Positions 747 to 1,014 of a stretch of 64,000 nt of DNA are shown one piece after another. Each line of letters starts with the position of its first letter. Within the stretch, counting starts at the first letter, position 1. The position numbers and the translations under genes were made by a program. A model generated the notes under the pieces. The model was not told the DNA's origin. It saw only the letters and a program-made list of their open reading frames with translations, and did not search any database. This stretch comes from a virus. Its lineage: Duplodnaviria > Caudoviricetes. The stretch lies in the IMG/VR virus record IMGVR_UViG_3300021399_000103, positions 96,001 to 160,000 of that record, one strand, 5' to 3'.

Positions 747-1014
747 AGGGGAGTAGTTTCAATGGTAAAACGATGGTCTTCAACCTGAAGTTTTTCAAAA
801 TTGGTGCCTTATTATAGGAATATAGTAAGTGGAGGCGATGATATCGGTGAACCCTGTAAAATGGGAATACCGAGGGAACGAAAGGCCCGTAGAGACTAGA
901 TAATCGCCCAGACAGAACGCCTGAAGATATAGTCCAGACTACAAACAGAAGTGGCGGTGAAAACCGTAGTAGTACGCAACACCATATTTGGGGGTTCGAA
1001 TCCCTCCTCCCCTG
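747..1014 (+). tRNA. Opal-decoding tRNA-Trp(UCA) interrupted by a group I intron (exons 747-780 and 977-1014)
   Basis: Acceptor AGGGGAG/CTCCCCT with G73; D arm GTTT/AAAC; anticodon stem ATGGT/ACCAT; spliced loop CT-TCA-AC; T arm GGGGG-TTCGAAT-CCCTC. Confidence 0.9.
781..976 (+). ncRNA. Group I intron, 196 nt, no ORF, IC3/trnL-like, inserted between tRNA positions 34 and 35
   Basis: 5' exon ends in U and intron ends in G; P2 CTTATTATA/TATAGTAAG; P3 GGCGAT/ATCGCC; R GTAGAGACTAGA (889-900); S AAGATATAGTCC (924-935); P7 GACTA/TAGTC. Confidence 0.9.

Follow-up and report, generated by a model that had tools for sequence, protein, structure and literature searches.

Positions 747–1015 (+) of the window, the 64,000-nucleotide stretch of phage DNA analyzed here, hold a tRNA gene that is interrupted between tRNA positions 34 and 35 by a 196-nt intron (781–976). 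The 5′ exon of this tRNA-Trp(UCA) gene (747–780, +; tRNA positions 1–34) ends in GGTCTT. The 3′ exon (977–1015, +; positions 35–73) starts with CAACACCAT and ends with G73 at 1015, the CCA tail being unencoded. The start at 747 given in the original prediction is correct, but the gene ends at 1015 rather than 1014. Its placement on the plus strand between hsp20 and a holin gene was confirmed, as was its distance of about 44 kb from the main tRNA array, which begins 44.1 kb away.

The tRNA is part of a unit behind a sigma-A/70-type promoter (TTGACT-17-TATAAT, 98–126, +; 11/12 match). The unit consists of a 58-aa ORF without family match (150–326, +), an Hsp20-like gene (340–714, +) with weak matches (E of 0.006 in Pfam and 3e-4 in PHROG), the tRNA, and a holin-like gene that has no Trp codon (1059–1466, +; PHROG 13712, E = 4.5e-23), all of them free of TGA. 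A hairpin followed by a T-run (63–103, +), as read from the sequence, is the probable terminator of the upstream lysis genes; it was not listed by a terminator scan with a loop limit of 8. The same scan placed a bidirectional terminator at 1467–1508. A 193-aa membrane-anchored protein with four TGA codons is encoded convergently with the holin (1507–2088, −) and is conserved beside the tRNA unit; its gene is TGA-free in one intronless relative (L001). Further along, a RuvC-like resolvase gene (2143–2667, −) contains four in-frame TGA codons, and its translation would depend on the tRNA. Most full-length relatives, with or without the intron, have three to four TGA codons in this gene.

The promoter site (10–12 of 12 positions) is found upstream of hsp20 in 27/30 relatives, intron-bearing or intronless, and, as a weak indication, RNA contigs from three studies start at 150–155. 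Metatranscriptome contigs from four studies contain hsp20 and intron pieces of relatives. One of these pieces retains the 5′ junction in unspliced form, and joined exons were not seen in any of the contigs, which leave 973–1600 uncovered, capture short modified tRNAs poorly and cannot show absence. Eight nucleotides before the tRNA is a hairpin (GTAGAGAA...TTCTCTAC, 711–738, +) that is present in both intron-bearing and intronless relatives. It may serve as a leader-processing or attenuation signal, and is a better candidate than the intron for controlling the supply of suppressor. Every relative has such a conserved hairpin shortly before its suppressor tRNA, and one hsp20 RNA contig ends at 699.

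Several other features of the genome were observed. About 40 sigma-A-like promoter matches cluster at the ends of the phage record (G000:C1:1-15000 and 170000-176419), likely an early host-takeover region. The phage encodes a tmRNA (window 51276–51625, −) with a long tag ending in QVALAC. The tRNA-Trp(CCA) of the array (window 47983–48063, −) is non-canonical: its D region is enlarged and contains an additional hairpin, its T stem is irregular, and it scores under the default cut-off of ARAGORN. The same shape is seen in G004:105961-106032, and the gene is normal in G001–G003.

Exon junction and predicted mature product

Joining U780 to C977 in silico produces a 73-nt cloverleaf with a 7-bp acceptor stem, a short variable loop and the anticodon UCA in the 7-nt loop CU-UCA-AC. 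The joined tRNA has A1-U72, G5-C68, A9 and G73, the Trp identity elements outside the anticodon (Bacillus set). The sequence supports a UGA-reading tRNA-Trp as the spliced product; its charging with Trp and its reading of UGA are predicted from these features. A tRNA body of Trp identity split after U34 by 196 nt had been proposed, together with the loop CU-UCA-AC, and both hold: the body folds canonically on joining, and intronless orthologues (L181, L182, L202 and L204) carry exactly the predicted joined junction, GGTCTTCAACACCAT.

Since the intron begins with CAAC like the 3′ exon, five junction registers are equivalent and yield one identical product. The 780/976 junction is fixed by the U34-G804 wobble and omega-G976. 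Given a U at −1 and an omega-G, only this junction gives a canonical 73-nt tRNA with the same stem, and other junctions were rejected. A tRNA-Sec identity was ruled out by the shape of the tRNA body and by the alignment of TGA with Trp. ARAGORN run without introns did not detect the split gene at 747–1015. With introns allowed, as had been suggested, it found a UCA gene but placed the intron wrongly.

Structure of the group I intron

The insert had no match to the Rfam group I model RF00028 even at E<5, so the Infernal-type check that had been advised came out negative. This is not decisive because, according to the accessible text of Williams 2020 (bioRxiv 10.1101/2020.01.27.920355), the model was built without bacterial seed sequences and failed to detect roughly one in six tRNA introns of bacteria. 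In view of the missing match, the fold was mapped by hand (P1/P1ex, P2, P3, P4-P6, P7, P8, P9.0, P9 and omega-G976). At the level of sequence and predicted fold, the insert (781–976, +; 196 nt, ending in G, no ORF, longest 21 codons) is confirmed as a group I intron of subgroup IC3, similar to that of Azoarcus.

The internal guide UUGGUG (801–806, +) lies directly before P2, in the register of the Azoarcus guide, and its GGUG is invariant in 11/11 aligned homologues. G806 pairs with C32 and G804 forms a wobble with U34, while U805 faces U33 as a mismatch. G803, U802 and U801 pair first with the intron CAA (P1ex) and then with the 3′ exon CAA (P10). The P1 wobble at the 5′ splice site (U780-G804) is found in 11/11 homologues; the adjoining U779-U805 mismatch is atypical. 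P2 (808–829, +) is capped by a GGAA tetraloop and has double changes at four pairs. P3 (834–839/903–908), supported by alignment and covariation, encloses P4 (844–849/868–873), P5 (852–854/863–865) and P6 (875–876/886–887), all on the plus strand; the P4-P6 domain includes the J4/5 adenosines. P7 (892 and 894–898/930–935) and P8 (909–923) occupy 892–935 (+), with C-G, G-U and G-C variants at 896/932. The P3-P7 pseudoknot, in which both helices have double changes, contains the guanosine site G894-C934 and a bulged A893. P9.0, P9 with a GAAA loop, and omega-G976 follow at 938–976 (+), again based on alignment and covariation; omega-G976 is invariant across the aligned homologues.

In the alignment of 11 homologues, 96% of cells pair and both sides change in 18/54 pairs, compared to only 29–41% paired in slid controls from the same alignment. 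Compensatory changes are located in P2, P3, P5, P7, P8, P9.0 and P9. Because related sequences can outperform a shuffle control, the structure relies mainly on the slid controls and on agreement with the established group I fold. The group I R/S elements, P2, P3, P7 and terminal G of the original prediction were thus recovered in a covarying structure. Global folding of the precursor gave an uninformative z of −1.6. Two other arrangements were discarded: a P1 of the form CUUCA:UGAAG (778–790), since UGAAG is unconserved and forms an L1 hairpin while UGGUG (802–806) is invariant, and a guide register with U777-G806, which would destroy the anticodon loop. The anatomy suggests that the intron would self-splice in a guanosine-dependent manner.

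TGA recoding and probable dependence on splicing

The phage record that contains the gene is 176 kb long, its two ends overlap, and CheckV estimates it to be 94% complete. Reading the genome under code 4 raises the coding cover from 0.56 to 0.80. The 289 in-frame TGA codons are mostly in the plus-strand structural and lysis arm, where structural genes have up to 24 each, and in a few genes of the replication arm. The RuvC, Mom-like and amidase genes of the replication arm, which had been named as containing TGA, indeed have 4, 6 and 9 in-frame codons, respectively. In alignments of orthologues, TGA is opposite TGG 20–41 times per genome pair, far more than any other residue (≤11), indicating that TGA encodes Trp. 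True TGA stops are nearly absent, with at most three short candidates.

The split gene is the only tRNA with a UCA anticodon in the 176-kb genome, and a second one was not found in any of three intron-bearing genomes. Genes for TrpRS and release factors were not found in the phage genome. Since the sole UCA gene is split, splicing must precede efficient UGA decoding here, and is very probably required for translation of the late genes. The claim that the UGA decoder exists only after splicing therefore stands as far as the gene is concerned, the splicing step itself being predicted from the intron anatomy.

Intron-bearing and intronless relatives

Searches with the holin and Hsp20 identified 35 distinct orthologous loci, whose source appears to be the ruminant gut. 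A tRNA(UCA) gene is located just after hsp20 in 35/35, hsp20 always being directly upstream. The alleles comprise 23 with the intron, five intronless short-arm forms, four of which match the predicted junction exactly, and seven intronless double-arm forms, so that 12/35 relatives are intronless; the sigma-A-like promoter is present in 11/11 intronless loci checked. Presence of the intron is patchy, with at least four changes on well-supported branches of the hsp20 tree, three on the RuvC tree and four on that of the 193-aa gene, counts that are inflated in recombining phages. The TGA/TGG numbers are 280/431 and 215/394 in two intronless genomes, and 289/412 (the window phage), 200/388 and 297/384 in intron-bearing ones. 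Recoding is comparable with or without the intron, which is therefore dispensable for the recoding program. The mature tRNA of the window is 97% identical to that of L041, while Hsp20 is 45% identical, and 77% identical to that of L056, while Hsp20 is 98% identical. Judged by these identities, the tRNA cassette moves independently of hsp20.

Some relatives have additional elements. A structured 120-nt insertion in P6 is found in L005:3554-3948, L217 and L218 (introns of 322–327 nt), which have differing tRNA bodies. Many phage tRNA(UCA) genes of ∼95 nt have a second stem-loop in the variable-arm position, with a loop U-CCA-A and freely varying stems. This arm, absent from the window tRNA, resembles the anticodon arm of tRNA-Trp and is possibly a handle for the host TrpRS. 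It is carried by L001:7885-7979, L193, L196, L197, L209, L214 and L222, by about 55 loci among L230–L307, and by most intron-bearing loci among L308–L363. A scan not requiring CCA found 11 other long-arm UCA tRNAs of a different build, and 4/5 of those tested are tRNA-Sec according to Rfam.

The wider intron family

A scan for the 3′ junction identified 65 viral loci, 53 of which splice in silico to tRNA(UCA) at 34/35. These 53 represent 39 distinct introns of 183–707 nt, and 17 loci contain an ORF of 94–173 aa. All four ORF-bearing records checked matched PDDEXK_5 above cut-off, identifying PD-(D/E)XK homing endonucleases, and the PDDEXK_5 ORF starts in L1. PDDEXK_5 is the family of I-Ssp6803I, the homing endonuclease of the Synechocystis tRNA-fMet group I intron. 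The likeness to that intron lies in the PDDEXK_5 ORF, which homologues of the window intron carry at the same site; the window copy differs in being ORF-less, viral, and in another tRNA and position. A free PDDEXK_5 gene was not found elsewhere in the phage genome, a weak result since the control also gave no match.

Six introns of the ORF-bearing kind have 72–77% core identity to the window intron, which is 78–80% identical in its core to viral tRNA-Arg(UCU) introns and 66–75% to tRNA-Leu(UAA) introns. Similar introns apparently also occur in viral Asn and Ile tRNA genes. In silico splicing of 37 distinct introns yields a valid cloverleaf with a UCA loop in every case, although the exons differ widely. 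BLAST against cultured phage records returned short core matches only. A scan of GTDB gave mostly chance hits and three real intron-split UCA genes, located in low-coding stretches of gut Bacillota bins that are probably viral.

Intron-split tRNA(UCA) genes are also found in other phages, in tRNA arrays or isolated (L020:3611-3905, L124:2480-2790 and L103). L124 has a GUG guide yet is placed, with weak support, among the introns with a GAG guide, which suggests two possible origins of the U-U mismatch. A longer ORF-less group I type (341–360 nt) is present at the same 34/35 site in L308, L309, L311 and their copies in many gut phage records, and L317/L350 have a different, Cys-rich ORF. Two or more lineages of introns may have inserted at this position.

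Comparison with known systems

According to the accessible text of Williams 2020 (bioRxiv 10.1101/2020.01.27.920355), bacterial tRNA-Leu, Arg, Lys and Thr genes contain "3Ug" introns at 34/35, the classical ones being assigned to IC3. IC3 introns in tRNA anticodon loops occur in bacteria and plastids. As far as that text and PMC13168695 describe these introns and the Azoarcus tRNA-Ile intron, the window intron shares with them the insertion after CUU at 34/35, the U-1 wobble, omega-G, a length of ∼200 nt, the R/S motifs, GNRA loops in L2 and L9, and the guide directly before P2. It differs in its host, a phage stop-suppressor tRNA(UCA); neither a Trp nor a suppressor type is among the seed names in the accessible part of Williams 2020. 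Its guide is GUG with U-U at −2, unlike the GAG or GGG of the 3Ug seeds seen there.

Borges et al. (bioRxiv 10.1101/2021.08.26.457843), in the sections available, described Firmicutes phages that recode TGA; they detected a suppressor in only 35% of the genomes using code 4, and suspected that other suppressors were hidden or non-canonical. The window phage resembles the Agate and Jade phages of those sections in its large genome, code-4 structural and lysis genes, standard-code replication arm and suppressor beside the lysis cassette. In size, code and architecture, the only traits compared, it fits the Agate clade; unlike Jade, it has no TrpRS/RF1 module. A suppressor intron is not described in the same sections. 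The introns of T4 td/nrd, Twort and Bastillevirinae (PMC11878797) likewise self-splice within essential phage genes, but the gene interrupted in the window encodes a tRNA, and its maturation bears on how ∼40 genes are decoded. The literature outside subscription papers yielded no account of a phage suppressor tRNA split by an intron. The debate on whether phage introns are switches or selfish elements is already in print (PMC11878797).

Origin and role of the intron

The best explanation, to which we assign a probability of about 0.78, is that a group I intron from a homing family invaded the opal suppressor tRNA-Trp(UCA) gene as a selfish element whose splicing is obligatory, and that this copy no longer has the endonuclease ORF. 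Alleles with an endonuclease, without one and without any intron are found side by side, as is usual for homing introns. Host sigma-A polymerase would transcribe the TGA-free unit from the conserved promoter motif, and the intron would self-splice with free guanosine at U34-G804 and omega-G976. Host enzymes would then trim the RNA, add CCA and charge the tRNA with Trp; host charging is proposed because the phage lacks TrpRS and release factor genes. The mature tRNA would compete with RF2 at the TGA codons of late genes. On this reading splicing would be obligatory but probably unregulated. Two factors may explain why the intron persists: it sits in an essential, conserved anticodon loop, where nothing short of exact removal would leave a viable allele, and the split allele should resist cleavage by endonucleases of co-infecting phages. 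Against this homing reading, the window intron has no endonuclease, and pure parasitism does not predict the invariant U33-U mismatch and a P1 that loses to other hairpins.

These two features would be expected if a detuned former homing intron had been domesticated as a delay, splicing slowly so that an early-made suppressor matures late and postpones the code switch; we consider this unlikely. The unit is TGA-free and driven by sigma-A, so its RNA may be made early. The U33-U mismatch (GUG guide) is invariant in the window clade, and ORF-bearing introns have U-A there; of the introns harvested, 26 distinct ones have a GGUG guide versus GGAG in 11 others. Nearest-neighbor estimates put the window P1 at ∼ −0.2 kcal/mol, weaker than two competing hairpins at ∼ −2 kcal/mol; a U805A change is predicted to stabilize P1 by 4.5 kcal/mol. 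Intron positions +3 to +7 (start CAACC) can pair with exon positions 27–31 at 3–5 of 5 positions, partly tracking the exon sequence, and the predicted probability of this decoy is 0.35–1.0 in most GGUG members and ≤0.03 in GGAG members. Mismatch and decoy should each make selection of the 5′ splice site weaker. That phage group I introns might act as sensors has been proposed before (PMC11878797). However, sister phages that recode to a comparable extent do well with intronless alleles under the same promoter, and an early suppressor would cost the phage little as there are almost no true TGA stops. The decoy may merely reflect the intron 5′ end copying the 3′ exon, and the invariance of the GUG guide may reflect common descent. 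ViennaRNA gives P1 a probability near zero for GGAG introns too, as such calculations ignore the tertiary docking that matters, and the energies are therefore no more than a lead. The role of dedicated timer in the original prediction is not supported, given the 12/35 intronless relatives, the same promoter in 11/11 of those checked, their comparable recoding and the endonuclease-bearing homologues.

The original prediction also included a guanosine/Mg sensor, in which the level of either would set splicing and hence the time of translation of TGA genes. Such a switch would suit the dependence of the sole UCA gene on splicing and the use of guanosine as a substrate by every group I intron. Cellular GTP, however, is normally saturating for group I introns. 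No aptamer-like conserved element or conserved extra domain was seen, L1 and P6 varying freely in sequence and length; a search for Rfam aptamers in the intron found none, and beside the 5′ splice site, where ligand-regulated ribozymes of the c-di-GMP riboswitch-intron type have a conserved aptamer or switching domain, there is just the short decoy pairing. Homing endonucleases are encoded by homologous introns at this site, the same intron family occurs in ordinary tRNAs, and intronless orthologues exist, making a ligand-sensing role very improbable. Least probable is a splicing-dead relic inactivated by its weak P1, with UGA read by near-cognate readthrough or through a helper phage. The U-U mismatch adjoining the splice site, the competing hairpins, the shortened P5 tetraloop receptor of the window copy and the lack of a joint in RNA contigs would fit this account. 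It conflicts with the compensatory changes in P2, P3, P5, P7, P8, P9.0 and P9, the valid cloverleaves from 37 distinct introns despite wide exon differences, and the lack of any other UCA tRNA in three intron-bearing genomes, while structural genes contain up to 24 TGA codons each.

Implications

The range of genes known to harbor IC3 homing introns now includes a stop-suppressor tRNA. One short junction pattern revealed 53 viral split suppressors, a form that default ARAGORN and RF00028 missed in the window. Such hidden split genes offer a concrete reason why suppressors were found in just 35% of TGA-recoded phage genomes, the figure given in the available sections of Borges et al. The matched natural alleles (intronless, GAG-guide, GUG-guide and endonuclease-bearing) are suited to direct tests of the timing of the code switch. 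If the weak-P1 clade does splice slowly, the ribozyme would be a clock for genetic-code change in a clade of rumen phages.
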